Shown: positions 15,672-44,257 of the stretch, in pieces
How positions within the stretch are numbered: the stretch's first letter is position 1
How the letters are laid out: each line of letters starts with the position of its first letter
Assembly: GCA_964592355.1 (NCBI GenBank)
Contig: CAZQBZ010000001.1
Location: forward strand, 1 to 48,062
DNA length: 48,062 bases
Reading direction: 5' to 3'
From: an uncultured Candidatus Saccharibacteria bacterium
GTDB lineage: Bacteria > Patescibacteriota > Minisyncoccia > Minisyncoccales > Staskawiczbacteraceae
The notes under the pieces: generated by a model
Told to the model about the DNA's origin: nothing
Seen by the model: only the letters and a program-made list of their open reading frames with translations
Databases searched by the model: none
Program-made: the position numbers and the translations under genes

Positions 15672-15713
15672 TCGCTCGGCCATTGCCTTTGCAAATTGAC
15701 GGGATAATTATCC
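15672..15713 (+). repeat. type-B repeat element, left half only (truncated by or fused to type A)
   Basis: TCGCTCGGCCATTGCCTTTGCAAATTGACGGGATAATT is identical to the left ends at 37091 and 44072. It starts 1 nt after the atpD stop. Confidence 0.85.
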
Positions 15714-15849
15714 CGCTCGGCAACAGATTTGAAAGTGTACGCTCGCCCTTCCAGCGAAGGGCTCGCTCAGGTCCTCGCGCCTGGCGCGCCGCATAGCGGC
15801 GACCAGCCGCCAGGGCTGCGGCAGCCACTTTCAAACCTATTGCCTCGCT
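15714..15849 (+). repeat. type-A MITE-like palindromic repeat element, copy A1
   Basis: Termini are CGCTCGGCAACAGATTTGAAAGTG ... CCACTTTCAAACCTATTGCCTCGCT, enclosing a GC-rich hairpin-rich core. Homologous to 34762-34905 and 38546-38688. Confidence 0.85.
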
Positions 15850-15860
15850 ATAAAATATCT

Positions 15861-16100
15861 ATGAAATTATCAATTTACAGCTTAAAAAGAGTTTTGTTTC
15901 AGGGCCAAGCCCAGCTTTTAAATTGCAAAACAGCAGTGGGCGAGATAACGGTTTTGGATAACCATCATCCTTTGATTGGTATTTTGACTGCGGGAGCCGT
16001 GAAGGTAGTGGCAGAAGAAAAAGAACATTTTTTTGATGTAAAATCAGGCTTTATTGAGGTGCGCCACGGCAACGAGGTCCGCTGCCTTGTTGATGAGTAG
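15861..16100 (+). CDS. atpC: F0F1 ATP synthase subunit epsilon, N-terminal beta-sandwich only (79 aa)
   Basis: MKLSIYSLKRVLFQGQA...GEITVLDNHHPLIGIL..G.VKV...FIEV is epsilon-like. The first ATG after the repeat is used. The ORF-track start at 15729 lies within repeat A1. Confidence 0.8.
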   Translation: MKLSIYSLKRVLFQGQAQLLNCKTAVGEITVLDNHHPLIGILTAGAVKVVAEEKEHFFDVKSGFIEVRHGNEVRCLVDE

Positions 16101-16122
16101 AAAAAGCGTATAATTAAAATAT

Positions 16123-16653
16123 ATGCAGTGTCCAAACGACAACGAATATTTGCAAAAGATGTTGTTCCACGATGTTGAAGTGGACTATTGCCCAAAGTGT
16201 TTGGGTGTTTGGTTTGATAAAGACGAGTTAAGGCTTGCCAAAGACGAAAAAGACAAAGATTTAAATTGGGTTGATATTGATTTGTGGCGCGACAAATCAA
16301 AATTTCAAGTTGCGCATTCAAAAAGGCTTTGCCCGGTGGATAGGACAATGCTTGTGGAAACAAGATACGATAATTCAAGGACAAAAGTGGATTTCTGCAA
16401 AATGTGCAATGGAATTTGGCTTGATAGGGGAGAATTCAAGCAGATAATAAATTACTTGAAAAACAAGTCGGATTACGAAGTTTTAAATCACTACACCAAA
16501 AACTTGGCGGTTGAGTTGTGGGAAGTTTTCTCCGGCCCCGAAACATTTCGTGAAGAATTGGCAGACTTTTTTACATTATTAAAATTATTTAATTACAAAT
16601 TTATCACGCAACATCCGCGTATTACGGATTTGCTTGAAGATTTGCCAAAATAA
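16123..16653 (+). CDS. zinc-ribbon protein with two TFIIB-type Zn-finger (zf-TFIIB) domains
   Basis: Two copies of the C(P).......DxCxxCxGxWxDxxE pattern are present: CPND..DYCPKCLGVWFDKDEL and CPVD..DFCKMCNGIWLDRGEF. Confidence 0.7.
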   Translation: MQCPNDNEYLQKMLFHDVEVDYCPKCLGVWFDKDELRLAKDEKDKDLNWVDIDLWRDKSKFQVAHSKRLCPVDRTMLVETRYDNSRTKVDFCKMCNGIWLDRGEFKQIINYLKNKSDYEVLNHYTKNLAVELWEVFSGPETFREELADFFTLLKLFNYKFITQHPRITDLLEDLPK

Positions 16654-16655
16654 CT

Positions 16656-17204
16656 ATGATAGGATATATAATTTTAGCCGTTGTCGTGGTTGTCGCCCTG
16701 TGGGTGATTGCGGCATTTAATGGCTTTGTAGTGTTGAAAAACAGGGCAAAAGAAGCTTGGTCGGATATCGATGTGCAACTAAAAAGAAGGTATGACTTAA
16801 TTCCAAATTTGGTTGAAACAGTAAAGGGTTATGCAACACACGAAAGGGAAACATTAGACAAAGTTATCCAGGCAAGGGCAGCCGCAATGGGAGCAAAAGA
16901 TATTCACGAAAAAGCAGGAGCAGAAAATATGCTGTCTGATACATTAAAAAGTTTGTTTGCAATCTCTGAAAATTATCCGGACTTGAAGGCTTCAACAAAC
17001 TTTTTGGAATTACAGCGCGAACTTACAGACACAGAAGACAAAATTCAGGCAGCCCGCAGGTTTTATAACACAAATGTCAGGGATTTGAACATTAAAGTTG
17101 AGCAATTCCCCGGCAACATAATCGCAAACATTTTTGGATTCAAGCAGATGGAGCTTTTTGAAGCAAAAGGAGCCGAAAAAGATCCCGTTGCAGTAAAGTT
17201 TTAA
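16656..17204 (+). CDS. lemA: LemA family protein
   Basis: N-terminal TM segment plus AWSDIDVQLKRRYDLIPNLVETVKGYATHERETL...ARRFYN, typical of LemA. Confidence 0.9.
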   Translation: MIGYIILAVVVVVALWVIAAFNGFVVLKNRAKEAWSDIDVQLKRRYDLIPNLVETVKGYATHERETLDKVIQARAAAMGAKDIHEKAGAENMLSDTLKSLFAISENYPDLKASTNFLELQRELTDTEDKIQAARRFYNTNVRDLNIKVEQFPGNIIANIFGFKQMELFEAKGAEKDPVAVKF

Positions 17205-18109: not shown

Positions 18110-18119
18110 AATAATCATT

Positions 18120-18359: not shown

Positions 18360-18374
18360 CCGCTGATATACCCT

Positions 18375-18458: not shown

Positions 18459-18542
18459 CTTTTTAAAGCTTAATATAACCCATATCTGTTAAGGCAATCT
18501 GGACATTGTCCAGTTTTAGCGTAGACTAAAACTTGTATTAAC

Positions 18543-20096: not shown

Positions 20097-20192
20097 TTAG
20101 TTGCTTAATTGCTTTTATTGCTTCGCGAACGCTCTCTATGTAGGGAGTGTCTTGGAGGGTTATAATAAGCGTCGGGCGTGCCCGCTTGTATT

Positions 20193-20221
20193 AAAAAGCA
20201 TCCACAATGTGGATGCTTTTT
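20193..20221 (+). terminator. rho-independent terminator
   Basis: AAAAAGCATCCAC-AAT-GTGGATGCTTTTT: a perfect 9-bp stem followed by a T-run. Confidence 0.75.
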
Positions 20222-20342
20222 AATGAAAATTGGTGGGGCGAGAACCTCAAATCACTCCGTGTCGGAAAATATTAAAAACCGAGGGTTTTTAAAGCCGGGG
20301 GTCGGGGTGATTTGGAGGGGTTCTAGCGAGCCGTGGCGAGCG

Positions 20343-20360
20343 GAGTCCCACCTTCTCCGC
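20343..20360 (+). repeat. 18-nt direct repeat of the tRNA-Ser 3' end (att-like islet boundary)
   Basis: GAGTCCCACCTTCTCCGC is identical to 18441-18458, the 3' end of tRNA-Ser. Confidence 0.8.
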
Positions 20361-20563
20361 AAAATTAAATGCCCACGATAGGGCTTTTAATTTGCAGATA
20401 CCTGGTAGGAGGGTTGGTGAGGTAAAAAGGGTTCTTATAATTATTTTTACCCTATGTCGTCTCAGAATTTTTGTATATGTTGCCATGAACAGAGTTGCGT
20501 TGCCAGCGCGCGAAAAATCAAGACTCCTTGCAGAGATAAAATGGCCGGGTGTATTATAATAAT

Positions 20564-22285: not shown

Positions 22286-22296
22286 CATTTGAGGTT

Positions 22297-22337: not shown

Positions 22338-22423
22338 ATATGATTTTGAATAAATATAAATCCACGAGCTTACGCTCGCAGTATTATATCGCTACGCTAA
22401 AAACGTCAGAAATAATAAAAATT

Positions 22424-24375: not shown

Positions 24376-24389
24376 TAAAGATAAAAAAT

Positions 24390-30201: not shown

Positions 30202-30216
30202 TCGCGAATAAAAATA

Positions 30217-30368
30217 GGCTTCCTGTTTGACGCTCATTCCGCCCAGGTCGGGAAATCCCGCTTCGCGGGAATTTCTCGCGACCAGAAGCGACGAAATTGG
30301 CTCATGTCCTCGGCAAATTTTGCCTTCGGCAAACCATGCAATTTGCCTCCGGATCCTAACAGGAGACC
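30217..30368. repeat. type-D palindromic repeat element containing a type-C hairpin module (30244-30290)
   Basis: Terminal inverted repeat GGCTTCCTGTT ... AACAGGAGACC. The interior CAGGTCGGGAAATCCCGCTTCGCGGGAATTTCTCGCGACCAGAAGCG is homologous to 44115-44161. Followed by a T-run. Confidence 0.7.
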
Positions 30369-30420
30369 TATTTTTTTATTTGTCTTGCCAAGGATTTTTT
30401 CTATGGTAAAATAAATAAAT

Positions 30421-31755: not shown

Positions 31756-31760
31756 TATTA

Positions 31761-31789
31761 AAAGCGGGGATTTTAACCCCGCTTTTTTT
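31761..31789. terminator. bidirectional terminator between convergent genes
   Basis: AAAAGCGGGG-ATTTTAA-CCCCGCTTTTTTT. Confidence 0.7.
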
Positions 31790-33101
31790 AGTATAAATAT
31801 CCCCAAGTTTGCAATTTATCAGAATCTTCGTACCAGCCCAACCCAATGTCGGTACGGTAAAACATATTTTGCAATAAGATATTCTCAATTCTGCCATAAA
31901 CTTGTTTTCTGGCGTCCTCAACGGTTGTGCCCGAGCCGGTCACCACTAAAACATATCCTGATTCTCCCGCAATTTGCCAGTTGCCATCCGTCATCTTTAC
32001 GTCTCCTAAATGCACCCCATCCAAACTCGGTTTCTTAAAGATAATCGACAGGTCTCTGTAAATTTCCATTTCGGCCTTGTCAAAGTAGGGGAATGGGGGA
32101 ACCACGCAACACACACCTATTTGAAATCCTTTTTTGGTTTTTAATTCAAAGGATTCGCCCTTTGCCAGCATATATAAAAATTCTCCGATATTGGCGGTTA
32201 TGCCCTCCATCGCAATTGAGATATGCGGATATCCGAACCTGCAAGTGAATTCAAGAGGATAAATTCCTCTTGCGTTTGCAATGCAATTTATATCCACATA
32301 ACCCACATAGCCGGACTTTCTGATTTCCAAACCCATTTTTTCAAGAGTCGTTCTAAAAATTGTGTTGGGGCCTGACCAGTACATTAAGGTTCCCATTTCG
32401 CCGGTAAACGGACCGATATCGCCGGGGAACAATTTTTTGTGCTCGAAGTTTATGTTAACAGGATAAATGAAGTCTTTGCCATTAAAAAATGCTCCAACAG
32501 CCACCTCGACTCCTTGGGCAAATTTTTGCAGTTGAAATTGTTTTACCCTTTTTTCAAGAACTATTTTGTTTGATCTTAAAATTTCGTGAATATCCTTGCC
32601 GTCTTCATCTTTGCCTAAAAATAAGATGCCTTTTGAATCCGACCCCAAAAATCCAGATGGCTTAAAAACATATCTGCCGGGGTTTTGTTCTATAAATTTT
32701 AGAGCTTCGTCATAGTTTGAAAAATCCCAATGAGCCAAAGTAAGCATCCCCATTTTTTTCATTTCTGACTGGCCGAACTCCCTGTCTTCTTCAAGCCTGT
32801 CGGTGTATGCGGAACCGCCTACAACAAGCTTGCCCTTCTGCCTAAGCTCATCCGCTTCTTGTCCAAATCCCACGTCATCAAAAACAATAACATCGGCCCA
32901 GTCTATAAATTGCTTGTAATCAGGAACTTTATCTAAAAATCCGTCGTATACATCTTTATCCCATTCGGCTTTAATGTAGACCTTAACCTCATGACCCTCT
33001 TTTTTTATTTGATAAGCTATGTCTCCCGATAAACTTTCCCAGCTTACGAATAAAAACTTTTTTGGCGTTATTGGCGCATGGTTGTTTCCGTTTCCATTCA
33101 T
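31788..33101 (-). CDS. ATP-grasp ligase, PurD-like (phosphoribosylamine--glycine ligase family)
   Basis: 437 aa with a PurD-like N-domain (KFLFVSWESLSGDIAYQIKKEGHEVKVY) and an ATP-grasp core (YVFKPSG...). The canonical GGREHA motif is absent. Confidence 0.6.
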   Translation of the reverse strand: MNGNGNNHAPITPKKFLFVSWESLSGDIAYQIKKEGHEVKVYIKAEWDKDVYDGFLDKVPDYKQFIDWADVIVFDDVGFGQEADELRQKGKLVVGGSAYTDRLEEDREFGQSEMKKMGMLTLAHWDFSNYDEALKFIEQNPGRYVFKPSGFLGSDSKGILFLGKDEDGKDIHEILRSNKIVLEKRVKQFQLQKFAQGVEVAVGAFFNGKDFIYPVNINFEHKKLFPGDIGPFTGEMGTLMYWSGPNTIFRTTLEKMGLEIRKSGYVGYVDINCIANARGIYPLEFTCRFGYPHISIAMEGITANIGEFLYMLAKGESFELKTKKGFQIGVCCVVPPFPYFDKAEMEIYRDLSIIFKKPSLDGVHLGDVKMTDGNWQIAGESGYVLVVTGSGTTVEDARKQVYGRIENILLQNMFYRTDIGLGWYEDSDKLQTWGYLY

Positions 33102-33102
33102 T

Positions 33103-33528
33103 TTATTTATACTTGTCGTCGTAGGTTGAATAAGAAATAGTTAATTCCTCACCCTTTTTTATCGGCCTTGCCGCTTTAAAAATAAGCGCTTCGTCCTTAC
33201 CATTTCCGACAATTTTTAAATTTGGATTTTTTGAATTATTTACAAAGAAAGAAATGTCAATTCCGTTTAATCCCGTTTCGGGGATATATACCGAGCCGTC
33301 TTTTTCTATCACAAAAAAGTCATCAATCATTCTTAAAACCTCTTTATCCAACTTTTTTATCTCTTTTGCTTCAAACTTATGCCACTTGCCCTGTTTAATG
33401 CCGGCAAAGGGGTCTTTTCCTTTTGGAATATCCCTGACCGCAAAAACTCCAACACCTTCTATCTTTGAAGCCCTCAATCTGCAATAAGTATTTTTTAAAT
33501 TTTTAATAATTTCTTTTTTCTTTTCCAT
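33103..33528 (-). CDS. SET domain protein (putative protein-lysine methyltransferase)
   Basis: IEGVGVFAVRDIPKG...FVNNSKNPN...KKGEELTISYS is a SET signature. Its stop is 1 nt from the start of the ATP-grasp gene. Confidence 0.75.
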   Translation of the reverse strand: MEKKKEIIKNLKNTYCRLRASKIEGVGVFAVRDIPKGKDPFAGIKQGKWHKFEAKEIKKLDKEVLRMIDDFFVIEKDGSVYIPETGLNGIDISFFVNNSKNPNLKIVGNGKDEALIFKAARPIKKGEELTISYSTYDDKYK

Positions 33529-33617
33529 CTTTTATATTAACAATTATTATAGTATAACACTTGGAAATTTTTATGCAAAAAAACACCGCATTTCTGCGGC
33601 ATTTTTTAAACAAAAGA

Positions 33618-33800
33618 TTAGTATCTGTTTGTTCTTGGAGGTCTCTTTTTTGACCAGCATTCTCTGCAATAGATTGGTCTATCAGGAGATGGCTCAAAAG
33701 GCATCTCTGTGATTTCTGTTCCGCATTCGGAACATTTCCAGTTTCCTTTTACCATTTCTCTTGGTGCAAAACCTCCTCTGTTGTTATTTCCGTTAAACAT
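33618..33800 (-). CDS. CxxC-x17-CxxC-type zinc-ribbon small protein
   Basis: WKCSECGTEITEMPFEPSPDRPIYCRECW preceded by an Asn/Gly/Arg-rich N-terminus. As far as I recall, this family is common in CPR genomes. Confidence 0.7.
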   Translation of the reverse strand: MFNGNNNRGGFAPREMVKGNWKCSECGTEITEMPFEPSPDRPIYCRECWSKKRPPRTNRY

Positions 33801-33905
33801 TGTGTTTTTCTTAAATAAGAATAAACGACCTTTCTAATAGGCCGTTTTTATTCGTACTATTAGCTTGATTTTATTATACTTTACTGATAGGATAAAGTCA
33901 ATACT

Positions 33906-34754
33906 ATGAAGAAAATTATTCTCTTGCCAATAATCTTGGCAATTATTATTCTAATTTTAATTGGCATATTGGTTTTTTATAAAACACCGCAATCTGAGGT
34001 TCAGGCTCCGACAATTCAGGGGGGGATTATTGTGAGTTCTCTGGTGGAAGATCAGGAAATTTCTTCGCCGTTGAAAATTGCAGGATACGTTAACGGACAA
34101 GGATGGACGGGCTTTGAGGGTCAAGTTGGCACAGTCACGCTGCTTGATTATAAAGGCAACGAATTAGCCACAGAAGTTTTAAAAGCTACAACAGATTGGA
34201 CCCAGCTTCCGACTCAATTTGAAGCGGAACTCGAGTTTGTGCCAGCAAGCAGCGGACCGGCAACACTTTTATTTAAAAATGAAAATGCCAGCGGTTTACC
34301 GGAAAATAACAGAGAATTCTCATTGCTGGTGTCAGTAAAACAAGAACAGGAGCCGGAAACAATGGAGGTGAGCGTATTCTTTAATAACAACAATCTCGAC
34401 CCCCAAGTCAGCTGCAATAAAGTTTTTGAGGTAAAAAGAACCATTCCTAAGACGGGAGCAATTGCGAGAGCGGCCATTGAGGAGCTTTTAAAGGGGCCGA
34501 CCCAGCAGGAAATAAAATCAGGATATTATACGAATATAAACAGCGGAGTGAAATTGAATAACATAAGCATTCAAAAAACCAATCCGCCCTCCGCGCTTGT
34601 TGATTTTGATGAACAACTGCAGTTTCAGGTTGGGGGGTCTTGTAAAGTCGGAGCAATCAGAGCGCAGATAACCCAAACCTTAAAACAGTTTCCATCAATT
34701 GAAGACGTGATTATTTCAATAAACGGCAGAACAGAAGATATTTTACAGCCTTAA
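33906..34754 (+). CDS. Gmad2 Ig-like + GerMN domain protein, membrane anchored
   Basis: N-terminal TM segment, SSPLKIAGYVNGQGWTGFEGQVG (Gmad2-like) and VSVFFNN...RAAIEELLKGPT (GerMN-like). Confidence 0.65.
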   Translation: MKKIILLPIILAIIILILIGILVFYKTPQSEVQAPTIQGGIIVSSLVEDQEISSPLKIAGYVNGQGWTGFEGQVGTVTLLDYKGNELATEVLKATTDWTQLPTQFEAELEFVPASSGPATLLFKNENASGLPENNREFSLLVSVKQEQEPETMEVSVFFNNNNLDPQVSCNKVFEVKRTIPKTGAIARAAIEELLKGPTQQEIKSGYYTNINSGVKLNNISIQKTNPPSALVDFDEQLQFQVGGSCKVGAIRAQITQTLKQFPSIEDVIISINGRTEDILQP

Positions 34755-34761
34755 ATCTTAC

Positions 34762-34905
34762 CGCTCGGCAACAGCTTTGAAAGTGTGCGCTCGTTCCGCC
34801 AGCGCGGAACTCGCTCAGGTCCTCGCTCCTGGCGCCCCTCGCCAAAATGGCTCGGGGAACCAGCCGCCAGGGCTGCGAAGCCACTTTCAAAGCTGTTACC
34901 TCGCT
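34762..34905 (+). repeat. type-A MITE-like palindromic repeat element, copy A2
   Basis: Termini are CGCTCGGCAACAGCTTTGAAAGTG ... CCACTTTCAAAGCTGTTACCTCGCT. Nearly identical to the reverse complement of 38546-38688. Confidence 0.88.
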
Positions 34906-34920
34906 ATAATTCATTAAATA

Positions 34921-36069
34921 ATGCAGTTTAAAATTTCAAAAAAATCAAATAAAAGCCAGGCCCGACTTGGATTTTTAGAAACCGAAAACGGAGTTGTGGA
35001 AACTCCTTGTTTGGTTGGCGTGGCAACTCAGGCGGCCGTGAAAACTTTAACATCCGAGGAGGCCTTGCAGGCAAAGTCGCAAATGCTAATTTGCAACACA
35101 TTTCATTTGCATTTAAAGCCCGGCCAAGACATTGTGGCCAAGGCGGGCGGTTTGCATGATTTTATGAATTGGAAAAAGCCCCTAATGACAGATTCTGGGG
35201 GCTTCCAAGTGTTTTCTTTGGGGTTTGGCCGAGATTATGGAATGGGTAAAGTTTTATCCGCCAAAGGCGGATCCGCCTCTGGCGGAAAAGTTGTGGAGGC
35301 AGGAGCCCAACCAAGTAAAATAAAGATTACAGATGATGGAGTATTTTTTAGGTCGCCGGTTGATGGGGCGGAACTGTTTTTAGGCCCCAAAGAATCAATA
35401 AAGATTCAGGAAAAATTGGGAGCAGATATTATTTTTGCCTTCGATGAATGCACCAGTCCTATCGCAGATTACGAATATACTAAAAATTCTTTGCAGAAAA
35501 CCCACAAATGGGCGAAAATCTGCCTAAAAGCCAAAAAATCAGACCAAGCCCTATTTGGCATCGTGCAAGGCGGGAAATTTAAAGATTTGCGCGAGCAATC
35601 AGCAAAGTTTATCGGGGGCTTGGATTTTGACGGATTTGGCATTGGCGGTGAATTTGGCGACGATAAAAGCCAAATGGCAAACATGATAGGCTGGTGCTTG
35701 CAAGAATTGCCGGAAAAAAAGCCAAGGCATCTGCTGGGCATCGGATATTTGGAAGATATGGAGCAAATTATTAAGGCTGGAATTGATACATTTGATTGCA
35801 CCGTTCCCACGCATTATGCCCGTCATGGAATTGCCTTTACTAAAGAGGGCAAGCTTGATTTGAATAAGTCTCAGTTTTTAAAAGACCGAGAGCCTCTGGA
35901 TTCGGACTGCATGTGTTTTGTGTGCCAAAATTACAAAAGAAATTACATATCACACTTATTAAAAGCCAGAGAAATTACGGCCTTAAAGCTTTTAACGTTT
36001 CATAATCTTTTTTATTTTAACACTTTTGCCGAGAAATTAAGACAGGAAATAAAAAATGGAAAAATTTGA
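34921..36069 (+). CDS. tgt: tRNA-guanine transglycosylase (queuine tRNA-ribosyltransferase)
   Basis: MTDSGGFQVFSL, FAFDEC, LFGIVQGG, LLGIG and the Zn site CMCFVCQNY...SHL. Confidence 0.92.
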   Translation: MQFKISKKSNKSQARLGFLETENGVVETPCLVGVATQAAVKTLTSEEALQAKSQMLICNTFHLHLKPGQDIVAKAGGLHDFMNWKKPLMTDSGGFQVFSLGFGRDYGMGKVLSAKGGSASGGKVVEAGAQPSKIKITDDGVFFRSPVDGAELFLGPKESIKIQEKLGADIIFAFDECTSPIADYEYTKNSLQKTHKWAKICLKAKKSDQALFGIVQGGKFKDLREQSAKFIGGLDFDGFGIGGEFGDDKSQMANMIGWCLQELPEKKPRHLLGIGYLEDMEQIIKAGIDTFDCTVPTHYARHGIAFTKEGKLDLNKSQFLKDREPLDSDCMCFVCQNYKRNYISHLLKAREITALKLLTFHNLFYFNTFAEKLRQEIKNGKI

Positions 36070-37090
36070 AGACGTAATTCAAAAATACAATTACGAACTG
36101 CCCGAAAAATTGATTGCCCAAAAACCCGCCTCTCCTCGCGACGAGGCGCGTCTTTTAATATATAACAGGACGGAAGATAAGGTTTATTGCGATAAATTTT
36201 TGAATATTGCGAAATATTTACCCAAAAACGCGGTTTTGGTTTTTAACGAAACAAAAGTTTTGCCCGCAAGATTGAATTTAAAAAAAGAAACAGGAGGAAA
36301 AGTTGAAATTTTGTATTTAAAAACCAGGGGAGGCCTGTTGGAAGTTTTGGCTGACAGAAAATTAAATGTCTGCGCAAAAATATTGTTAAATAAAAACATT
36401 GTTTTTGAAGTTGCGGCCCGCGACCAAAAGATTTATTTGTTAAAACCCTTGTTTGATGTCAAAAAAATCGATGCAGTTTTAGAAAAATATGGAGTGGCTC
36501 CGATTCCGCCATATATAAAACATTCACCTCTTTCAAAGGGTCAGTTAAAACAGCAATATCAGACAATTTTTGCAAAGCATTCTGGTTCTGTTGCTGCCCC
36601 CACGGCAAGTTTGCATTTTACGAAAAGAGTTTTGGCAAGCCTCAAAAAGGCGAAAATTAACGTAAAATTTGTTACTTTGCACGTTGGGCTTGGCACTTTT
36701 TCCCCATTGACCCAAGAAAATTTAGAAACTAAAAAGCTTCACTCTGAATTTTATAATATAAACAAAAAAACCGCGGAATTCCTGAATAAATCAAAGCATC
36801 AGGGCAAGCCAATTATCGCTGTTGGCACAACTGTTGCCAGAACACTGGAGGCTGCATCCAAAAATGGCCAAATTAAAAATTTGTCAGGTCAAACCGATAT
36901 TTTTATTTCAGAAGGGTACAAATTTGGTTTCATTGATGGAATGGTCACCAATTTCCATGTGCCCAAATCCAGTCTCTTGATGTTGGTTGCGGCGCTTGTC
37001 GGCAGGGAAAAAATTATGGAGATTTATAAATTTGCCATTGCTAAAAAATTTAAGTTTTATTCTTTTGGCGACGGGATGCTGATAATATAG
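36056..37090 (+). CDS. queA: S-adenosylmethionine:tRNA ribosyltransferase-isomerase
   Basis: YNYELPEKLIAQKPASPRDEARLL, AAPTASLHFT, LHVGLGTF, AVGTTVARTLE and FYSFGDGMLI. Confidence 0.92.
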   Translation: MEKFEDVIQKYNYELPEKLIAQKPASPRDEARLLIYNRTEDKVYCDKFLNIAKYLPKNAVLVFNETKVLPARLNLKKETGGKVEILYLKTRGGLLEVLADRKLNVCAKILLNKNIVFEVAARDQKIYLLKPLFDVKKIDAVLEKYGVAPIPPYIKHSPLSKGQLKQQYQTIFAKHSGSVAAPTASLHFTKRVLASLKKAKINVKFVTLHVGLGTFSPLTQENLETKKLHSEFYNINKKTAEFLNKSKHQGKPIIAVGTTVARTLEAASKNGQIKNLSGQTDIFISEGYKFGFIDGMVTNFHVPKSSLLMLVAALVGREKIMEIYKFAIAKKFKFYSFGDGMLII

Positions 37091-37091
37091 T

Positions 37092-37234
37092 CGCTCGGCC
37101 ATTGCCTTTGCAAATTGACGGGATAATTTTTGCCAGCGCAAAAATTTCCCTCAGAACTCGCCCCGCCAGTCGCCCTTCGGGCGACACCGTGCTGGCGGGG
37201 CTCCGTTATGCATTTGCAAAGGCAAGGCCTCGCT
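37092..37234 (+). repeat. type-B MITE-like palindromic repeat element, copy B2 (complete)
   Basis: Termini are CGCTCGGCCATTGCCTTTGCAAAT ... ATTTGCAAAGGCAAGGCCTCGCT, with internal nested hairpins. Starts 1 nt after the queA stop. Confidence 0.88.
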
Positions 37235-37251
37235 TGTTATAAAATTATCGT

Positions 37252-37797
37252 ATGGTAAAGCCGAAAATATTAGTTCATATTTGCTGCGCTATTTGCGCTG
37301 TGGCGCTTATAGAAAAGCTGAAACAAGATTTTGAGCCTGTTTTGTTTTATTACAACCCAAACATTTATCCCGAAGATGAATATGAAAAAAGAATGCAGTC
37401 GGTTGTGAAAATGGCGGAAATTTACAGTGTGGAATTTTTTGAGGCAAGTTATGAGCCGGAAATATGGCAGAAGAAAATAAAAGGAAAAGAAGATGATCCG
37501 GAAAGGGGAGCCAGGTGTTATGATTGTTTTGAAATGAGATTGCAAAAGACTGCCAAGCTGGCAGAAGAGCAGGGTATAGGGATTTTTACAACTTCTTTAT
37601 TTGTTAGCCCGTTCAAAGACGAAAAACAGGTGGATTTGGCCGGAAAAAACATTGCTAAGGCCGAAAATATAAAATATTTGGCAATGGCGGATATTTTGGA
37701 AAATAAAAGCGAAAACTGGAAAAAGACGCGAGAGCTTGCAAAAAGGCATAATTTCTTTTTTCAAAAATATTGCGGTTGCAAATTTAGCATATGGTAA
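37252..37797 (+). CDS. queH: epoxyqueuosine reductase QueH (DUF208)
   Basis: ILVHICCAICA, FYYNPNIYPEDEY, RCYDCFEMRL, FTTSLFVSPFKD and the CGC tail. Confidence 0.88.
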   Translation: MVKPKILVHICCAICAVALIEKLKQDFEPVLFYYNPNIYPEDEYEKRMQSVVKMAEIYSVEFFEASYEPEIWQKKIKGKEDDPERGARCYDCFEMRLQKTAKLAEEQGIGIFTTSLFVSPFKDEKQVDLAGKNIAKAENIKYLAMADILENKSENWKKTRELAKRHNFFFQKYCGCKFSIW

Positions 37798-37809
37798 TAT
37801 AATAAAGGT

Positions 37810-38100
37810 ATGAGAGGAAAACTTAAAAAAATTCAAGAAGAGCAAGAGAGGCTGGCCAGGGAAGTGCAGGTTAAGGTTATAGGTTATTTGCTTACGGCAT
37901 TGGGATTTGTAGCGGGTCTTGCGATGAATGACGCAATAAAATCAACAATAGAATACCTTTTTCCGCTTTCCGGCAACTCGGTGGTGGCAAAATTAATATA
38001 TGCGATACTGCTGACAATGGTAATAGCCGCAATAAGCGTATGGTTGATAAGGATATCAGAAAGAATTGAAGGAAAAAACAAAGATGAAAAAGCCGCTTGA
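37810..38100 (+). CDS. small membrane protein (DUF5654-like)
   Basis: 96 aa with two TM segments and ALGFVAGLAMNDAIKSTIEYLFP. Confidence 0.55.
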   Translation: MRGKLKKIQEEQERLAREVQVKVIGYLLTALGFVAGLAMNDAIKSTIEYLFPLSGNSVVAKLIYAILLTMVIAAISVWLIRISERIEGKNKDEKAA

Positions 38101-38226
38101 TAGAGCGGTTTTTTGTTGTGGATAAGTGCCAGTTGACCGATGTTTTTTAGGGGAGTAAAATTAAATCCCACGAAGAAAAAAATATTTTTATATAATTAAA
38201 TATCCGCGTTACGGCGGAAAAAAAAT

Positions 38227-38520
38227 ATGGAAAAAGAAAAACAAAATTTTTGCCACGATTGCGGCAAAATAATAGAAATGGAAGGAGAAGAAATTAAAAA
38301 CGGGGTTTTTTTGTCCTATGACAACGCAGGCGAGAAAATCCATGTGTTCAAATGCAGTGACTGCTATGACACGAACAAAGCTTTGACCAATTTCCAGCCC
38401 TGCGAGGTTTATAGCAGAGTTGTGGGCTATATCAGGCCCGTGCAGCAATGGCACAAAGGCAAAAAGCAGGAATTTGAAGAGAGAAAAGAGTTTGTAGTTA
38501 AAAACGAAGGCTGTTGCTAA
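38227..38520 (+). CDS. stand-alone NrdD C-terminal-like protein (Zn ribbon + glycyl-radical-type motif)
   Basis: CHDCG...CSDC followed by EVYSRVVGYIRPVQQWHKGKKQEFEERK. This matches the C-terminal RV.GY......WN.GK..E...R glycyl-radical segment of class III ribonucleotide reductase. Only 97 aa. Confidence 0.7.
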   Translation: MEKEKQNFCHDCGKIIEMEGEEIKNGVFLSYDNAGEKIHVFKCSDCYDTNKALTNFQPCEVYSRVVGYIRPVQQWHKGKKQEFEERKEFVVKNEGCC

Positions 38521-38545
38521 GTTTTTTTGACCGAATAATTTAAAG

Positions 38546-38688
38546 GCGAGGCAATAGGTTTGAAAGTGGCTTCGCAGCCCTGGCGGCTGGTTCCCCGAGC
38601 CATTTTGGCGAGGGGCGCCAGGAGCGAGGACCTGAGCGAACTCCGCGCTGGCGGAGTGAGCGTACACTTTTAAAGCTGTTGCCGAGCG
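38546..38688 (-). repeat. type-A MITE-like palindromic repeat element, copy A3 (inverted orientation)
   Basis: The reverse complement reads ..CGCTCGGCAACAGCTTTAAAAGTG...CCACTTTCAAACCTATTGCCTCGCC, and its core is nearly identical to A2. Confidence 0.88.
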
Positions 38689-38701
38689 TCTATTTTAAAA
38701 C

Positions 38702-39310
38702 ATGGAAAAATATATTTTGCCCGAGTTGCCGTTTGGTTATAAAGATTTGGAGCCATATATTACAGAAGAAACTTTGCGTTATCATCACGATAAGCATCAC
38801 CAGGCATATGTTAACAATTTAAACACCGCGGTGGACAAGCACCCCGAACTTTTTGAAAAATCTGTTGAAGAATTGCTGACAAATTTAGATGTTGTGCCAG
38901 AGGACATTCGCCAGGCCGTAAAAAATAATGGCGGGGGAGTTGCCAACCACACATTGTATTGGAATAGCATGGCAAAGGGCTCAGGCCAGCCTGTTGGCGA
39001 ATTGGCCGGTGCGATTAATAAAACTTTTGGCAGCTTTGAAGATTTTAAGCAAAAATTTGAGGAAGAAGGCTTAAAAAGATTTGGCTCAGGCTGGGTGTGG
39101 CTGGTGAAAAATGATTCGGGTGAGTTGGAGATTTTATCAACCGCAAATCAAGACACTCCTTTGTCGGATGGAAAAATTCCAATTTTGTTGAACGATGTTT
39201 GGGAGCATGCCTATTATTTGCAATATAAAAATCTGCGGGCAGACTATTTAAAAGCCTGGTGGAATATAGTAAACTGGCAAGAAGCCGAAAAAAGGTATAT
39301 AAATAAGTAA
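38702..39310 (+). CDS. sodA: Fe/Mn superoxide dismutase
   Basis: LPELPFGYKDLEPYI, HHDKHHQAYV and DVWEHAYYL. Confidence 0.95.
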   Translation: MEKYILPELPFGYKDLEPYITEETLRYHHDKHHQAYVNNLNTAVDKHPELFEKSVEELLTNLDVVPEDIRQAVKNNGGGVANHTLYWNSMAKGSGQPVGELAGAINKTFGSFEDFKQKFEEEGLKRFGSGWVWLVKNDSGELEILSTANQDTPLSDGKIPILLNDVWEHAYYLQYKNLRADYLKAWWNIVNWQEAEKRYINK

Positions 39311-39311
39311 T

Positions 39312-39974
39312 ATGATTACACTTGAAAAGGTAAGAAGCAATCCGCAAATTTTGAATTTTATAAAACAGGCCGACACCTCAATGATGGCCTTAGAATACAC
39401 GAATCATGGGTTAAGGCATGTTAACTTGGTGGCGGAAAGGGCCAAGCAAATCGCCAAAACTTTGGGCCTGTCAAAAGAAGACCAGGAATTAGCGGCTATT
39501 TCCGGATTTTGTCATGATTTGGGAAATTTTATGACCCGCACATACCACCACTATTTTGCGGCTTTAATATTTCATCAGATTTTTCAAAATGAGGCAGAAC
39601 CCCAAGAAGTTTCAACAATAATGCAAGCCATCGCCAATCACGACAAGCAGGAAATGGAGTTTACCACTGCTGTTTCAGCTATTTTGGTGCTTGCCGACAA
39701 ATCCGACGTTGACAGATCAAGGGTAGCCGAATCAAGCCTTGAAAAGATAAAACTGGATATTCATGACAGGGTAAACTATGCAACAACAGAAAGCAGAATC
39801 AAGATAGACAACGCAAAGAAAAGGATTACTTTGGTTTTGAAAATCGATACCAATTTTTGTCCCATTATGGAGTATTTTGAGATTTTTACCGAAAGGATGG
39901 TATTTTGCAGGCAAGCAGCCGAATTTTTGGGTTACCAGTTCGGAATTGTGATAAACAAGGTCAGGCTCCTTTAA
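39312..39974 (+). CDS. HD domain phosphohydrolase
   Basis: HGLRHVNLVAERA...GFCHDLGN (H...HD). 220 aa. Confidence 0.7.
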   Translation: MITLEKVRSNPQILNFIKQADTSMMALEYTNHGLRHVNLVAERAKQIAKTLGLSKEDQELAAISGFCHDLGNFMTRTYHHYFAALIFHQIFQNEAEPQEVSTIMQAIANHDKQEMEFTTAVSAILVLADKSDVDRSRVAESSLEKIKLDIHDRVNYATTESRIKIDNAKKRITLVLKIDTNFCPIMEYFEIFTERMVFCRQAAEFLGYQFGIVINKVRLL

Positions 39975-40004
39975 TTTTGTAATGCTTTTCGCTTAAACAT
40001 TGAT

Positions 40005-40460
40005 ATGAAAGATTTTTATGTGATTTGCGATAGCATTCGCAGCTTGGAAAATATAGGGTCGATTTTTAGAACGGCTGACGCATTAGGGGTGACAAAAATA
40101 TATCTTTGCGGAATATGCGGAACTCCGCCAAACCCAAAAATTTCAAAAACGGCCCTTGGCGCCGAAAAGAATGTTCCCTGGGAATATGTAAAACAAACAG
40201 GCAGATTGATAGATAAATTAAAAAAGCAGGGAATTGAGGTTGTGGCACTGGAGCAGGCCGAAGGTTCAATTGATTACGCAAAATATAGGCCCAAATTTCC
40301 GGTTGCCCTGATTGTTGGCAATGAAGTAAAAGGAATTTCTCCCAAGATCTTGCAAAAATGCGATAAAGTAATAGAATTGCCAATGTCGGGAAAAAAAGAA
40401 AGCCTAAATGTGTCAGTGGCTTTTGGGGTTGCTGGCTACGAAATTGTTAAGAGTAAATAA
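40005..40460 (+). CDS. SpoU/TrmH family RNA 2'-O-methyltransferase
   Basis: NIGSIFRTADALG, ALIVGNEVKGIS and IELPMSGKKESLNVSVAFGV. Confidence 0.88.
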   Translation: MKDFYVICDSIRSLENIGSIFRTADALGVTKIYLCGICGTPPNPKISKTALGAEKNVPWEYVKQTGRLIDKLKKQGIEVVALEQAEGSIDYAKYRPKFPVALIVGNEVKGISPKILQKCDKVIELPMSGKKESLNVSVAFGVAGYEIVKSK

Positions 40461-40496
40461 TATCGCTACGCTAAGTAAAATTAAAAACAAATTAAT

Positions 40497-40723
40497 ATGA
40501 TAAAAGTAGAAGATTTACAGGGGCTTGCAGATGTTTTGAATGATCCGGTTTATATGTCAATTTATTTGGCTGGAGTATAATCTGGAAAGGTTTTGCCCTT
40601 TGGAAAGCGGCCCAAAACGAAAGCAAACCTTGGTTCATTGTGATGCTCGTGGTAAACACAGTCGGAATTCTGGAAATATTATACGTTTTTGTCTTTTCAA
40701 AGAAAAAAGAATCAGAAAAATAA
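40497..40723 (+). pseudogene. DUF5652-like small membrane protein gene with an apparent -1 frameshift near 40577
   Basis: Frame 0 reads MIKVEDLQGLADVLNDPVYMSIYLAGV and then hits TAA at 40578. The -1 frame continues from 40577 as IIWKGFALWKAAQNESKPWFIVMLVVNTVGILEILYVFVFSKKKESEK, the DUF5652 core (WKG.ALWKAA....WF....NT.GILEI.Y), but has no start codon of its own. Confidence 0.55.
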
Positions 40724-40727
40724 TCTG

Positions 40728-40756
40728 TTGACAAGATAAAATTATTTTGATAAATT
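40728..40756 (+). promoter_or_regulatory. candidate sigma-70 promoter for the Rrf2-nifS-nifU-mnmA operon
   Basis: TTGACA (40728-40733), a 17-nt spacer, then TAAATT (40751-40756). It is followed by the inverted repeat AAACAGAC-GGAATTA-GTCTGTTT directly before the ATG. Confidence 0.35.
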
Positions 40757-40785
40757 AAAAACAGACGGAATTAGTCTGTTTTTAA

Positions 40786-41169
40786 ATGCAAATATCAAAG
40801 AAAACACAATATGGAATGAGGGCAATGGTTTTTTTGGCAAAAAAATATAAGTCAAAAAAATTGTCTTCGCTTAAAGAAATCTCAGAAAAAGAGAACATTC
40901 CTTTTTCGTTCTTGGAAAAAATAGTTGCGGACTTAGAAAAGGCCAAATTAGCAAAGGGTAAAAAGGGGATTGGCGGGGGGTATGTTTTAACGAAAACGCC
41001 TCAAAAAATCACTGCTTTTGATATTGTAAGAGTTTTAGAAGAAACCCAGTCTGTTAACTGCGCGCTATGCGGACAAAAATCAAAATGCGCCTCAAAAAAC
41101 GTGTGGTCAAAGGTCAATACGGCGATTGAAAAAGCCTTAAAATCAGTTAAATTATCAAGCCTTATATAG
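40786..41169 (+). CDS. Rrf2 family transcriptional regulator (IscR/NsrR-like)
   Basis: The MQISKKTQYGMRAMVFLA... winged-helix N-terminus and GGGYVLTK are present. C-terminal Cys residues occur as CALCGQKSKC. Confidence 0.88.
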   Translation: MQISKKTQYGMRAMVFLAKKYKSKKLSSLKEISEKENIPFSFLEKIVADLEKAKLAKGKKGIGGGYVLTKTPQKITAFDIVRVLEETQSVNCALCGQKSKCASKNVWSKVNTAIEKALKSVKLSSLI

Positions 41170-41187
41170 GAGCTTGGCCGATATAAC

Positions 41188-42327
41188 ATGAAAAGAATAT
41201 ATTTAGATTATGCAGCTACGACACCGATAGACAAAATGGTTGCAAAGGCCATGCAGGATTCGCCATGGGGCAATACGATGTCTTTGCACTCTTTCGGCCA
41301 GGAAGCGAAGCTCGCGTTGGAAAACAGCAGGCAGATTTTTGCCGATGCGATAAATGCCAATGCAAATGAGATTGTTTTTACGGGCTCAGCTACGGAAAGC
41401 AATAATACAGCTTTAAAAGGTGTGGCCTTCGCCAAAAAATCGGGCCACATAATCATTTCTTCGATAGAACATCCGTGCATTGTAGAATCAGCCAAATGGC
41501 TTAAAAAGCAGGGTTTTGAAATCACAGAGTTGTCGGTTGATAGTTTGGGCAGAATTAATCCTCAGGACGTGGCAAATGCAATAAAGCCAGAGACGATTTT
41601 GGTGTCTGTAATACATGCAAACAATGAAATCGGCACAATTCAGGATATTGCCCAAATTGGAAAAATTTGCCGCAATAAAAATGTTTTATTTCACACAGAT
41701 GCCTCTCAAAGCTTTGGAAAAGTGACCATTGATGTTGAAAAGATGAACATAGACTTGCTTACAGCCTCTTCACATAAAATTTACGGGCCAAAAGGGGCAG
41801 GGCTTTTGTACGCGAGAAAGGGAATTGTTTTGACGCCATTGTTGCACGGAGGCGGCCAGGAAAACGGGCTTCGCGGTTCCACTGTTAATTTATCGGCAAT
41901 CGTCGGATTTGCCAAGGCCTGCGAAATTTGCCAAAAGGAAATGAAAAAAGAGGCGAGAAGGCAGATATCTTTGAGAAATAAACTGATAAAAGGAGTTTTG
42001 AAGATAGAAAATTCATATTTAAACGGCCATCCGACAGAAAGATTACCCAATAATGCCAATTTCAGATTTGATTTTGTGGAGGGCGAAAGCTTGCTGATGC
42101 AGCTTGATATGGAAGATATTGCTTGCTCAACCGGATCGGCCTGCTCGTCATTCAAGCTTGAACCCAGTCATGTTTTGCTGGCAACCGGCTTAAAACCAGA
42201 GCAGTGCCATGGAAGCCTGCGCGTTTCGATAGGAAGATTCACTACCCAAAAGGATATAGATAAAATAATCAAAGTTTTGCCAAAGATCGTGGGAAAAATA
42301 AGGGCAATTTCACCGTATGGGAAATAA
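41188..42327 (+). CDS. nifS: cysteine desulfurase (NifS/IscS type)
   Basis: IYLDYAATTP, SSHKIYGPKG (PLP Lys) and CSTGSACSS (active Cys). Confidence 0.93.
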   Translation: MKRIYLDYAATTPIDKMVAKAMQDSPWGNTMSLHSFGQEAKLALENSRQIFADAINANANEIVFTGSATESNNTALKGVAFAKKSGHIIISSIEHPCIVESAKWLKKQGFEITELSVDSLGRINPQDVANAIKPETILVSVIHANNEIGTIQDIAQIGKICRNKNVLFHTDASQSFGKVTIDVEKMNIDLLTASSHKIYGPKGAGLLYARKGIVLTPLLHGGGQENGLRGSTVNLSAIVGFAKACEICQKEMKKEARRQISLRNKLIKGVLKIENSYLNGHPTERLPNNANFRFDFVEGESLLMQLDMEDIACSTGSACSSFKLEPSHVLLATGLKPEQCHGSLRVSIGRFTTQKDIDKIIKVLPKIVGKIRAISPYGK

Positions 42328-42363
42328 ATCCATACCCTACAGATTTGAAGATGTGATTTCGTT

Positions 42364-42539
42364 ATATATATTTGCATCTACCGATAGTCGTTTTGCCCAG
42401 CGGCAAAACGCTATCTGCATTCTCGGCAATTTGCTCCTCGCCCGCGGGCGAGGAGACCATGCCAAATTGCCTGCGAAAGCTAGATCCAAATATATATAGC
42501 GAAATCTAATAAAACCATTTTCAAACCTATCGCCTCGCT
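42364..42539. repeat. type-E palindromic repeat (42364-42498) followed by a solo type-A right terminus (42516-42539)
   Basis: Terminal inverted repeat TATATATATTTGCATCTA ... TAGATCCAAATATATATA, with internal hairpins GTTTTGCC-CAG-CGGCAAAAC and CTCCTCGCC-CGC-GGGCGAGGAG. After it, CCATTTTCAAACCTATCGCCTCGCT matches the type-A right end. Confidence 0.7.
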
Positions 42540-42554
42540 ATTAAATTTAAAAAC

Positions 42555-43040
42555 ATGAAAACAAAAACACCAAAAACCTGTGCGGCATTATACACCCCAA
42601 AAGTAATGGAGGCTTTTAAAAATCCGCATAATTACGGAAAGATAAAAAATCCATCAGGCATCGGCAAGGTGGGAAATTTGGTTTGCGGCGATGTAATGTG
42701 GCTGTACATAAAAGTTGACGAAAAAGAGAAAATAACAGACATAAAGTTTGAAACTTTTGGTTGCGTGGCCGCAATTGCCACCAGCTCAATGATTACAGAT
42801 TTGGCAAAAGGCAAGACAATAACACAGGCCTTAAAGCTCAAAAAAGACGACATTATCAAAAAACTCGGGGGGCTGCCATCTATAAAATACCATTGCTCAG
42901 TGTTGGCAATAGACGCCTTGGTTGAGGCTGTTTACGACTATTATTTAAGCCAGGGAAAGGATTTTCCGGAAGGGTTGCAGGAAAAGCACAAAGTCATTGC
43001 CAAAGAAAAAGAAATGGCAGAGAAAACATTTGAAGATTAA
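42555..43040 (+). CDS. nifU: Fe-S cluster assembly scaffold (NifU/IscU type)
   Basis: CGDVMWLYI, FGCVAAIATSS and HCSVLAIDAL (three ligand Cys). Confidence 0.92.
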   Translation: MKTKTPKTCAALYTPKVMEAFKNPHNYGKIKNPSGIGKVGNLVCGDVMWLYIKVDEKEKITDIKFETFGCVAAIATSSMITDLAKGKTITQALKLKKDDIIKKLGGLPSIKYHCSVLAIDALVEAVYDYYLSQGKDFPEGLQEKHKVIAKEKEMAEKTFED

Positions 43041-44069
43041 ATGAAAAAAGATAATTCCAAAATCAAAGTGGTTTGTGCTATGTCCGGCGGAGTGGACAGT
43101 TCGGTTTCGGCGGCCTTGTTAAAGCAAGCCGGCTTTGATGTTGTGGGAGTTATGGCAAAGTTTTGGAAAGATGGCCAAAGCTCGGCAGAAAACAGGTGCT
43201 GCTCAATAGAAAGCGAAAAGCTTGCCAGGCTTGTTTGCCACCAGCTTGGAATTCCATTTTATGTCGTTAATTTGGAAAGAGAATTTAAAAAAGCGGTTGT
43301 TGATGATTTTTTGGCGCAATATAAGAAAGGGGCTACGCCAAACCCGTGTGTTGTGTGCAATAAAGAAATAAAATTCGGCCTTTTGCTTAAAAAAGCCGAA
43401 AAAATGGGAGCTGATTTTTTGGCGACAGGGCATTATGTCAGGATAGAAAACGGAAAAATGATGAAGGGAAAAGATAAGGCAAAAGACCAGAGCTATTTTT
43501 TATGGCAGTTAGATAAAAGCCATCTTAAAAAGATTTTGTTTCCCGTCGGAGGATATGCAAAGGCCGAGGTTCGCCAGCTGGCAAAAGAATTTGATTTGCC
43601 GGTTGCAGAGACGCCGGAATCTCAGGAGGTTTGCTTTGTGCCGGATATCACAAATAATTTTTTGGCAAAATATTTAAAGCAGAAACCGGGAAAAATTATT
43701 GATAAAACCGGCAAGGTTATGGGTTCTCATCAGGGGCTGTGGTTTTATACGATAGGGCAGAGAAAGGGGCTTGAATTGTCGCAGGGGCCATGGTTCGTTG
43801 TTGCCAAGGACTTTAAGAAAAATGTCTTGGTTGTGTCAAAGAATAAAAAAGATTTGTATAGCAAAGAGTTAAAAATAAAGAATACAAACTGGATTGGTAA
43901 AAAATCGGCCTCCGTGGATGTTAAAATAAGATACAAAAGCGGGTTTGCAAAGGCTAAAATATCAGGGAATAAAATTATTTTTCGGGCTCGTCAGCTGGCA
44001 ATTACTCCTGGACAATCGGCCGTATTATACAAGGGAAATGAATTGCTTGGCGGGGGAATAATAGAGTGA
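43041..44069 (+). CDS. mnmA: tRNA 2-thiouridine(34) synthase
   Basis: PP-loop VVCAMSGGVDSS, NPCVVCNKEIKF, ATGHY and DQSYFL. Confidence 0.95.
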   Translation: MKKDNSKIKVVCAMSGGVDSSVSAALLKQAGFDVVGVMAKFWKDGQSSAENRCCSIESEKLARLVCHQLGIPFYVVNLEREFKKAVVDDFLAQYKKGATPNPCVVCNKEIKFGLLLKKAEKMGADFLATGHYVRIENGKMMKGKDKAKDQSYFLWQLDKSHLKKILFPVGGYAKAEVRQLAKEFDLPVAETPESQEVCFVPDITNNFLAKYLKQKPGKIIDKTGKVMGSHQGLWFYTIGQRKGLELSQGPWFVVAKDFKKNVLVVSKNKKDLYSKELKIKNTNWIGKKSASVDVKIRYKSGFAKAKISGNKIIFRARQLAITPGQSAVLYKGNELLGGGIIE

Positions 44070-44072
44070 TAT

Positions 44073-44257
44073 CGCTCGGCCATTGCCTTTGCAAATTGAC
44101 GGGATAATTTTTGCCAGGTCGGGAAGTCCTGCTTTGCAGGAACTTCTCGCGACCAGAAGCGCAAAAATTTCCCTCAGAACTCGCCCCGCCAGTCGCCCTT
44201 AGGGCGACACCGTGCTGGCGGGGCTCCGTTATGCATTTGCAAAGGCAAGGCCTCGCT
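44073..44257 (+). repeat. type-B repeat element copy B3 carrying a nested type-C hairpin module (44115-44161)
   Basis: Same termini as B2. Relative to B2, 42 nt (GTCGGGAAGTCCTGCTTTGCAGGAACTTCTCGCGACCAGAAG) are inserted in the loop of the GGGATAATTTTTGCCAG/CGCAAAAATTTCCC hairpin. Confidence 0.88.

Follow-up and report, generated by a model that had tools for sequence, protein, structure and literature searches.

A family of GC-rich hairpin repeats with a common three-way junction lies between genes of a Patescibacteria genome

We analyzed a stretch of 48,062 nucleotides (nt) from an uncultured bacterium of the Patescibacteriota (assembly GCA_964592355.1, contig CAZQBZ010000001.1, positions 1 to 48,062; hereafter the window) and describe here the GC-rich, hairpin-forming repeats that lie between its genes. 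The window has a GC content of 40%, its genes are nearly all on the + strand, and its cumulative GC skew climbs steadily. Among GTDB representatives, which do not include the window's own species, its QueA protein is best matched by a "Patescibacteria group bacterium" (72%) and a "Candidatus Parcubacteria bacterium" (59%); thus, the host is a bacterium of the Candidate Phyla Radiation (CPR). The repeats occupy the atpD–atpC, queA–queH, nrdD-like–sodA and nifS–nifU junctions, the gap upstream of tgt and the gap between mnmA and a small open reading frame (ORF). Together they sum to 1136 nt, or 2.4% of the window. All are variants of one structural family, and we favor the reading that this family is mobile.

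The elements of the window are of types A, B, D and E, with a smaller module, C, inside two of them; all are on the + strand except A3. The first is a B-type left half (15672..15713), made of the 5' arm of the outer stem, TGAC and a shortened 5' hairpin. It is 87% identical to the left ends of the two full B elements (repeat match 15672-15717) and is directly abutted by A1, a full A-type element at 15714..15849 in the atpD–atpC junction, whose three-way junction is flanked by CTCG on both sides and which is 95% identical to copies in the related contigs L101 and L096. The D-type element lies at 30210..30375, A2 (full A-type, 34762..34905) lies upstream of tgt, and B1 (full B-type, 37092..37234) follows directly after the queA stop codon. 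A3 (full A-type, 38546..38688, − strand) is inserted in reverse orientation between the nrdD-like gene and sodA; it is 93.7% identical to A2, and the inverted-repeat match between the two spans 164 nt at 88% complementarity. In the nifS–nifU junction, an E-type element (42355..42506), with arms of 26 nt that are 92% complementary, is followed by a solo A-type right end (42515..42546), a remnant 91% identical to the right end of A1. B2, the B-type element behind mnmA (44073..44257), is identical to B1 over 46 nt and 99% identical over 101 nt, and the sole difference is one 42-nt insert: B2 is B1 with a hairpin, the C module (44114-44169), placed within the CAGC loop of its 5' hairpin. The same hairpin recurs in the D-type element (30243-30298), and the two C copies are 86% identical. 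A fourth A copy, A4, lies antisense just past the window (L086 16067-16225) and is 96.7% identical to A3; beside it the window contig retains one end of a G-type element that is complete in contig L107. A first-pass annotation of this DNA had listed nine pieces, some nested in or abutting others; repeat finding and direct reading both recovered the nine pieces, and the nesting stands as it had been described.

The general character of the elements is also as that annotation had it. They are 132–185 nt long and richer in GC than their surroundings (0.47–0.65, against 0.40 for the window), and all fold far below dinucleotide shuffles (z from −3.9 to −11.3), in keeping with the internal stem-loops that had been noted. 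The terminal inverted repeats (TIRs) are present as arms of 15–26 nt, and they are type-specific and covarying. The elements have no ORF of their own; those that cross them are spurious, and the recurring peptide AQVLAPGAP..QPPGLR is real in this sense, since an A element read in frame gives ..LKVYARPSSEGLAQVLAPGAP... Gene calling nonetheless turns elements into small ORFs or N-terminal extensions (window 15729-16100, L004 2316-2681, L086 5147-5329), and AtpC is called at 121 rather than 79 amino acids through an element-derived extension. All elements lie between ORFs, as had been claimed for the space between a stop codon and the next start. The added claim that they often begin 1–4 nt after the stop is too narrow: three begin at 0–2 nt and the rest at 7–27 nt.

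These copies are genuine. The window sequence is contained in JASEYN010000635.1 (76.8 kb), from the NCBI metagenome-assembled genome GCA_030154545.1, and the repeat copies are base-for-base equal in one such NCBI genome, four JGI assemblies and Logan assemblies. The agreement of independent assemblies excludes the assembly artefact that had been raised as a concern. Several contigs of other assemblies end inside elements, as is expected for multi-copy repeats.

What unites the elements is their fold. When each copy was folded, types A, B, D and E, together with types B', F and G from relatives, all gave a three-way junction of stems P1, P2 and P3. P1 is a long outer stem of 15–26 bp whose sequence is type-specific. 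P2 is a 5' hairpin with the loop CAGC in A, B, B' and E; in B2 and D the C module splits this loop. Every element runs in the order P1, P2, a junction ending in CTCG, P3 and CT(G/C)CG, with the 3' arm of P1 following a few bases later. Two forms of P3 exist: in F and G it is a short stem with the loop ACAACG, and in A, B, B', D and E this stem contains an additional hairpin, behind which comes a 6- to 7-nt bulge (ACCATGC, CACCGTG or ACCAGC), as in the D-type sequence CTCG-GCAAATT..ACCATGC AATTTGC-CTCCG. Extra small hairpins sit in loops, P3b in the loop of P3 and the C module in that of P2. The four to five related types that were originally distinguished are one structural family with a common three-way junction and common junction motifs, which goes beyond mere relatedness in sequence.

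The same short motif frames these stems. In types A, B, B', F and G, a direct CTCG stands immediately at either end of P1, within a wider frame (A/T)TCG-CTCG-[P1...P1']-CTCG-CT(A/T), and in type A, P2 is likewise framed by CTCG...CTCG. Units of the form CTCG-hairpin-CT(N)CG occur 20 times in 141 kb of sequence from the clade, compared with 0–5 times in local shuffles. A descriptor consisting of T-S-M-D-D-W-C(C)-TCG, a 7-bp stem and CT[CG]CG picks out B-, D- and E-type elements and yields only one spurious site in 1.4 Mb of other loci. The folds give no general indication of a preferred strand: the reverse strand of A-type elements folds better by 8–17 kcal/mol, the other types fold about equally on both, and G-U pairs are alike in number on the two strands.

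Pairing within the stems is maintained while their sequences change. Covariation was measured in type A only, since a MAFFT alignment across types was not structure-consistent and no cross-type covariance model was therefore built. Among 17 distinct A copies, 93.4% of cells in the alignment are paired, compared with 88.7% after shuffling and 43–51% when the pairing is slid by one column. Across these copies, both partners have changed in six of the seven P2 pairs; two P1 positions are mismatched in most copies. Outside type A, the P3 stems of F and G (GCCCCG/CGGGGC and GCATCT/AGATGC) differ at 5 of 6 pairs, remain complementary throughout and enclose an identical ACAACG loop, and compensatory changes at two pairs distinguish the two copies of the C module.

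Variation also comes in blocks. Type A has at least five P2 alleles (GCCCTTC, GTTCCGC, ACTCCGC, ATTCCGC and GCTTTGC), which combine freely with two P3b alleles, and A3 differs from its orthologous copy in contig L098 by the whole P2 stem. The P2 of type B is 100% identical over 48 nt to that of the B' element in L096, while P1 and P3 of B' differ, and the P3 of B' resembles that of E. Comparison of the copies shows that elements swap entire stem modules with one another.

The family extends beyond the window, with about 18 further copies in metagenome contigs of related Patescibacteria. A metagenome scan with a 20-base pattern from the A core found nine AT-rich contigs with 13 more A copies at 76–96% identity. 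Used as a protein query, the spurious A peptide matched 2 clusters only, and these led to contigs L108–L111, which hold more copies. Two contigs are syntenic with the window at 83–86% nucleotide identity, L096 with 35.7–46.1 kb and L107 with 40.3–55 kb. A copies from different species are 90–96% identical, above the identity of their flanking genes, which suggests either constraint on a master sequence or recent exchange. No member was found by sequence and descriptor searches of 80 QueA loci, 19 of them from other Patescibacteria, nor did pattern scans of IMG/VR and phage BLAST searches return a copy. The family looks restricted to this clade, as far as a thin sampling of sequences can indicate.

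Orthologous junctions differ in what they hold. The queA–queH junction contains B1 in the window and an A-type element in L096 and L098. Between the nrdD-like gene and sodA, the window and L098 have A on the − strand, L096 has B', and L104 has a B' left half followed by A on the + strand. At nifS–nifU, the window has E and the solo A end, L107 a full A, L109 a decayed A that has lost its CTCG ends, and L096 an F element. Behind mnmA, the window has B2 with its C module and L096 has an A followed by an F-like right end; L107 and L109 are empty. At this empty site the two genes overlap as ATGA (…AATAATACAATGAAAAT…), with the stop TGA inside the start ATG. Where the site is filled, the part of the overlap with the stop codon and the part with the start codon each occur once, flanking the insert, so that insertion appears to have duplicated at least ~9 nt. 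Read in this way, the junctions show that elements are gained, lost, replaced and left to decay between related genomes. They also answer the concern that the repeats might be limited to the window, as they provide copies, insertion polymorphism and an empty site elsewhere.

Certain arrangements recur. Composites of a half-element and a full element are found at unrelated loci (atpD–atpC and nifS–nifU in the window, and in L104 and L096), and the one at atpD–atpC, a B-like left half with a full A, has a counterpart at another locus in L104. Together with the re-use of junctions by different types, these composites show that new copies land in or beside old ones. Even the S10/spc ribosomal-protein operon has been invaded: in L097, a type I element lies between the S10 and L3 genes (1095-1200), the micro-motif TCGCTACGCTA lies between the L4 and L23 genes (2437-2447), and an A copy follows the methionine aminopeptidase gene (12781-12912). 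Over all placements, 23 are sense and 2, A3 and A4, are antisense.

The explanation that we consider probable is that these repeats are one lineage-restricted family of non-autonomous, hairpin-dependent mobile elements, selected as a single-stranded fold and not as a duplex terminus bound by protein. The TIRs of a classical MITE (miniature inverted-repeat transposable element) are bound as duplex DNA by a transposase. Here one type's TIRs bear no relation to another's, although they are complementary in every case, and it is the unpaired frame that the types have in common; we infer that the object under selection is the folded single strand. The MITE-like interpretation proposed at first is thereby supported in outline and refined, since type-specific TIRs that evolve by compensation fit a single-strand hairpin element of the REPIN or ERIC kind better than a classical MITE. 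An enzyme encoded elsewhere and acting in trans would recognize the folded strand and would cut or join between CT and CG of the frame; it could be an HUH/Y1 nuclease (RAYT- or IS200-like) or an enzyme of another kind. Existing elements would then be preferred targets for incoming ones. Should cutting and joining take place at the frame, each element would bring new targets with it, which would explain the nesting, the half-and-full composites and the re-use of junctions. A sense-oriented element would be co-transcribed in the operon mRNA and may be tolerated because it folds compactly between the stop and start codons.

Several observations weigh against this explanation. No mobilizing enzyme was found in ~100 kb of annotated neighbors and ten further ORFs, where Pfam searches for transposase, reverse transcriptase and HUH domains gave none. 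Across the samples represented by the NCBI, JGI and Logan assemblies, no presence/absence polymorphism was seen within the strain. The outer CTCG frame is missing from D and E. Tests for direct repeats at insertion sites were suggestive and not significant overall (longest common substring, p=0.017; abutting repeats, p=0.13); longer AT-rich flanking repeats are clear at A4, L101 and A3. The GTAG tetranucleotide of REP sequences and its complement CTAC have no conserved position in types A–G and do not occur at the feet of their hairpins; the sole occurrences of GTAG are in TCGCTACGCTA read on the opposite strand and in the type I element of L097. The strong orientation bias fits either a strand-specific, replication-coupled mechanism or selection at the level of mRNA, which are inseparable here because transcription and replication are co-oriented. 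Finally, the unpaired motifs kept across types (the CAGC loop, ACCRTG/ACAACG and CT(S)CG) might just as well be the signature of a functional RNA.

The last two points lead to the possible, but in our judgment unlikely, alternative that the elements are structured RNAs which the host uses in cis in its operon mRNAs, for processing, for stability or as folding spacers that keep stop and start codons close, with their spread being secondary. Such a role is compatible with mobility. It would account for the sense orientation of 23 of the 25 independent placements, for unpaired motifs that persist while stems covary, and for A copies that are better conserved between species than genes are. The 8–22 nt that separate the end of an element from the following start codon contain nothing like a Shine-Dalgarno sequence, and the empty site has GGGGGA upstream of its ATGA overlap. 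There is also precedent, as ERIC and Correia elements alter the cleavage and stability of mRNA (reviewed in PMC3184786). However, A3 and A4 are antisense, and the nrdD-like–sodA junction holds elements of both orientations in different genomes. Relatives manage without an element at junctions that are filled in the window, as the empty site and the L109 copy with its lost CTCG ends show, and occupants of different types are interchangeable. Nor do G-U pairs clearly favor one strand. A scan of the window at Rfam gathering thresholds matched tRNA-Ser only, and scans of the A2, B1, A3, E, B2C and D regions with E-value limits of 5–10 gave matches at chance level. Signals of transcription are no more evident: none of the 30 terminator-like sites in 29500–45000 coincides with an element, and a scan for the sigma-70 consensus found no consistent promoter at elements.

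Some of these negatives also count against independent small RNA genes or self-cleaving ribozymes, each transcribed from an AT-rich, −10-like flank of its own, an idea that we hold to be highly improbable. The elements do resemble such families in that their three-way junction keeps its loop and junction nucleotides while the closing stem varies, and TATAAT-like hexamers lie 3–6 nt outside both ends; AT-rich hexamers of this sort are, however, expected from the composition of the spacers, and the promoter scan gave no consistent site. No ribozyme or small RNA model matched even at E<10, reading of both strands revealed no hammerhead core (CUGANGA...GAAA), and truncated halves and decayed copies persist. 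We give almost no weight to the remaining proposal, that the elements are site-specific recombination sites, attC- or att-like hairpins whose conserved ends (TCGCTCGG and CCTCGCT) are crossover cores and whose occupants are cassettes. Types do replace one another at exactly the same junctions, the right junction CCTCGCT-TAAA is kept in the window and L096, and imperfect hairpins placed right after stops in mostly one orientation recall attC sites and the VCR of Vibrio. Yet the flanking genes are syntenic housekeeping operons and not cassettes, the attC cores RYYYAAC/GTTRRRY are absent on inspection (the elements end CTCG GCAAC... / ...TTGC CTCG), and no integrase is adjacent; the only recombinase is of the serine type and lies at least 13 kb away in a low-GC island.

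The mobile reading thus remains the one that we favor, and it can be placed among known systems. The elements are closest in kind to REPINs and REP-BIMEs: they are non-coding, GC-rich, extragenic and multi-copy long hairpins of ~100 nt with compensatory changes in their stems, as REPIN hairpins also have (PMC3116915). On either side of the REP hairpin, 5' and 3', RAYT cuts the single strand at CT dinucleotides (PMC8266576), which is paralleled by the CT-CG frame on both sides of the elements and of P3. However, the defining feature of REP is that the 5' foot of its hairpin has a conserved GTAG (PMC8266576), and the absence of this tetranucleotide here is the reason that we do not claim REP or REPIN membership. 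The elements, moreover, are not doublets of short REPs; they have a branched three-way junction, nested hairpins and many unrelated outer stems per genome, and no RAYT gene, which in REP systems mostly has REPs on its flanks, is present in the available sequence.

Other intergenic repeats offer further parallels. ERIC/IRU, Correia (CREE), RUP, BOX and bcr1 elements are likewise 100–200 bp long, bounded by TIRs, intergenic, often co-transcribed at the 3' ends of genes and predicted to fold stably. No sequence relation to them was seen. The present host is a CPR bacterium, the termini differ between types while inner motifs are common, the flanking repeat is CTCG and not TA or TTTAT, elements are systematically nested, and one occupant gives way to another at fixed junctions. 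The GC clusters and hairpin elements of mitochondria (yeast, Allomyces and sponges) are similar as GC-rich single, double or triple hairpins that invade the intergenic regions of AT-rich, compact genomes, but they are organellar, shorter (17–84 bp) and without any sequence or junction motif in common with the family. Integron attC sites and VCR, imperfect hairpins of ~60–140 nt that lie right after ORFs in mostly one orientation, are recognized by structure as single strands; the elements differ in having no attC cores, integrase or cassette array, and in having conserved housekeeping operons as neighbors. The concern, raised with the first-pass annotation, that the copies might match a described repeat or RNA family is answered: Rfam offered no match and our literature search found no account of such repeats in Patescibacteria or other CPR bacteria. 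The family is previously undescribed and is an example of an already known kind of small mobile DNA; for a bacterial intergenic repeat, its combination of a branched fold, a common frame and hairpins inserted recursively is unusual.

A more far-reaching version of the mobile reading, which we regard as decidedly unlikely, would have a new mechanism of mobility depend on the three-way junction and its invariant frame (CTCG...CT(S)CG, CAGC and ACCRTG/ACAACG) as its core for recognition or catalysis. Hairpins of any sequence would be inserted recursively between CT and CG, as single-stranded DNA or via an RNA intermediate, and the fold may also have been recruited by CPR bacteria as operon "punctuation" that replaces coupling based on Shine-Dalgarno sequences. 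The variable duplications of 8–13 nt at some sites, taken with a 20-nt duplication around a repeat of another family at 47972, would fit target-primed synthesis.

A smaller sequence may be related to the frame. The 11-mer TCGCTACGCTA occurs three times on the + strand of the window (7685..7695, 22389..22399 and 40463..40473) and once in L097, with ~0.07 occurrences expected by chance in 141 kb, and the copy at 40463..40473 has no counterpart in the orthologous spacers of L096 and L107. This micro-motif equals the left flank of the elements (TCGCT), a single A and their right flank (CGCTA), and it may be an excision scar or footprint, or else a seed. The extra A is not explained by a simple deletion from CTCG to CTCG, since such a deletion leaves none.

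Other repeats are present nearby. A second, unrelated family is represented by an insert of ~125 nt at the 3' end of an SDR gene (window 47972-48062, continuing to ~48100; L086 10802-10930). On its two sides stands a 20-nt direct repeat, GGAGGCTGGACCGCTGCGTA, a duplication of the gene end including the stop codon; the insert is absent in L107 and present in L109, where the copy holds an extra 42-nt hairpin. This insert has a 36-nt core in common with a long GC-rich spacer at 20215-20375 and no Rfam match. The surrounding intergenic region (20097-20548, 452 nt) reaches 70% GC, shows long-range pairing of GGTGGG...CCCACC, likewise has no Rfam match and is a candidate for a divergent CPR non-coding RNA. 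Past the window, at contig positions 50554-50720 (L086 ~13384-13550), a type H hairpin element of ~150 nt with the ends ATAGCTCGGGCA...TGCCTGAGCTAT is followed by a terminator-like hairpin.

Two statements of the first-pass annotation need qualification in the light of other features. That no copy interrupts a gene holds for the main family; the possible exception is a 25-nt GC-rich hairpin outside it, CCCGCCGACG-N5-CGTCGGCGGG, that occurs twice in opposite orientations (7716-7740 and 11334-11358). The second copy lies in frame within the ORF of atpH (ATP synthase delta), where it encodes ..KNPPTSGVGGI.. and is possibly a palindromic insertion into the gene. That the window contains no transposase is correct for classical transposases, but there is a large serine recombinase at 1363-2937 (524 amino acids, Resolvase and Recombinase domains, adjoining an Mrr-like nuclease), which has no visible link to the repeats. 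It belongs to an island (window 1-5000; upstream, L092 1-9500) of 32–35% GC with many ORFs that lack a Pfam match and with no hairpin repeats, probably an integrated mobile element or prophage.

The genomes of Patescibacteria, at ~1 Mb, are considered to be streamlined, with few repeats. In the stretch examined here, a single repeat family fills ~2.4% of 48 kb of such a presumed streamlined genome. It sits in the most conserved operons, those for ATP synthase, queuosine, Fe-S clusters and mnmA, and in a relative the S10 ribosomal-protein operon, and it splits gene pairs that overlap in relatives. A practical effect is that these repeats break metagenome assemblies of CPR bacteria and introduce spurious ORFs and N-terminal extensions into gene calls. 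More broadly, the family provides a natural experiment on how hairpin repeats spread, nest and replace one another, on whether what is recognized is a fold with a 4-nt frame or a terminal sequence, and on how tightly coupled operons tolerate structured inserts of 140 nt.

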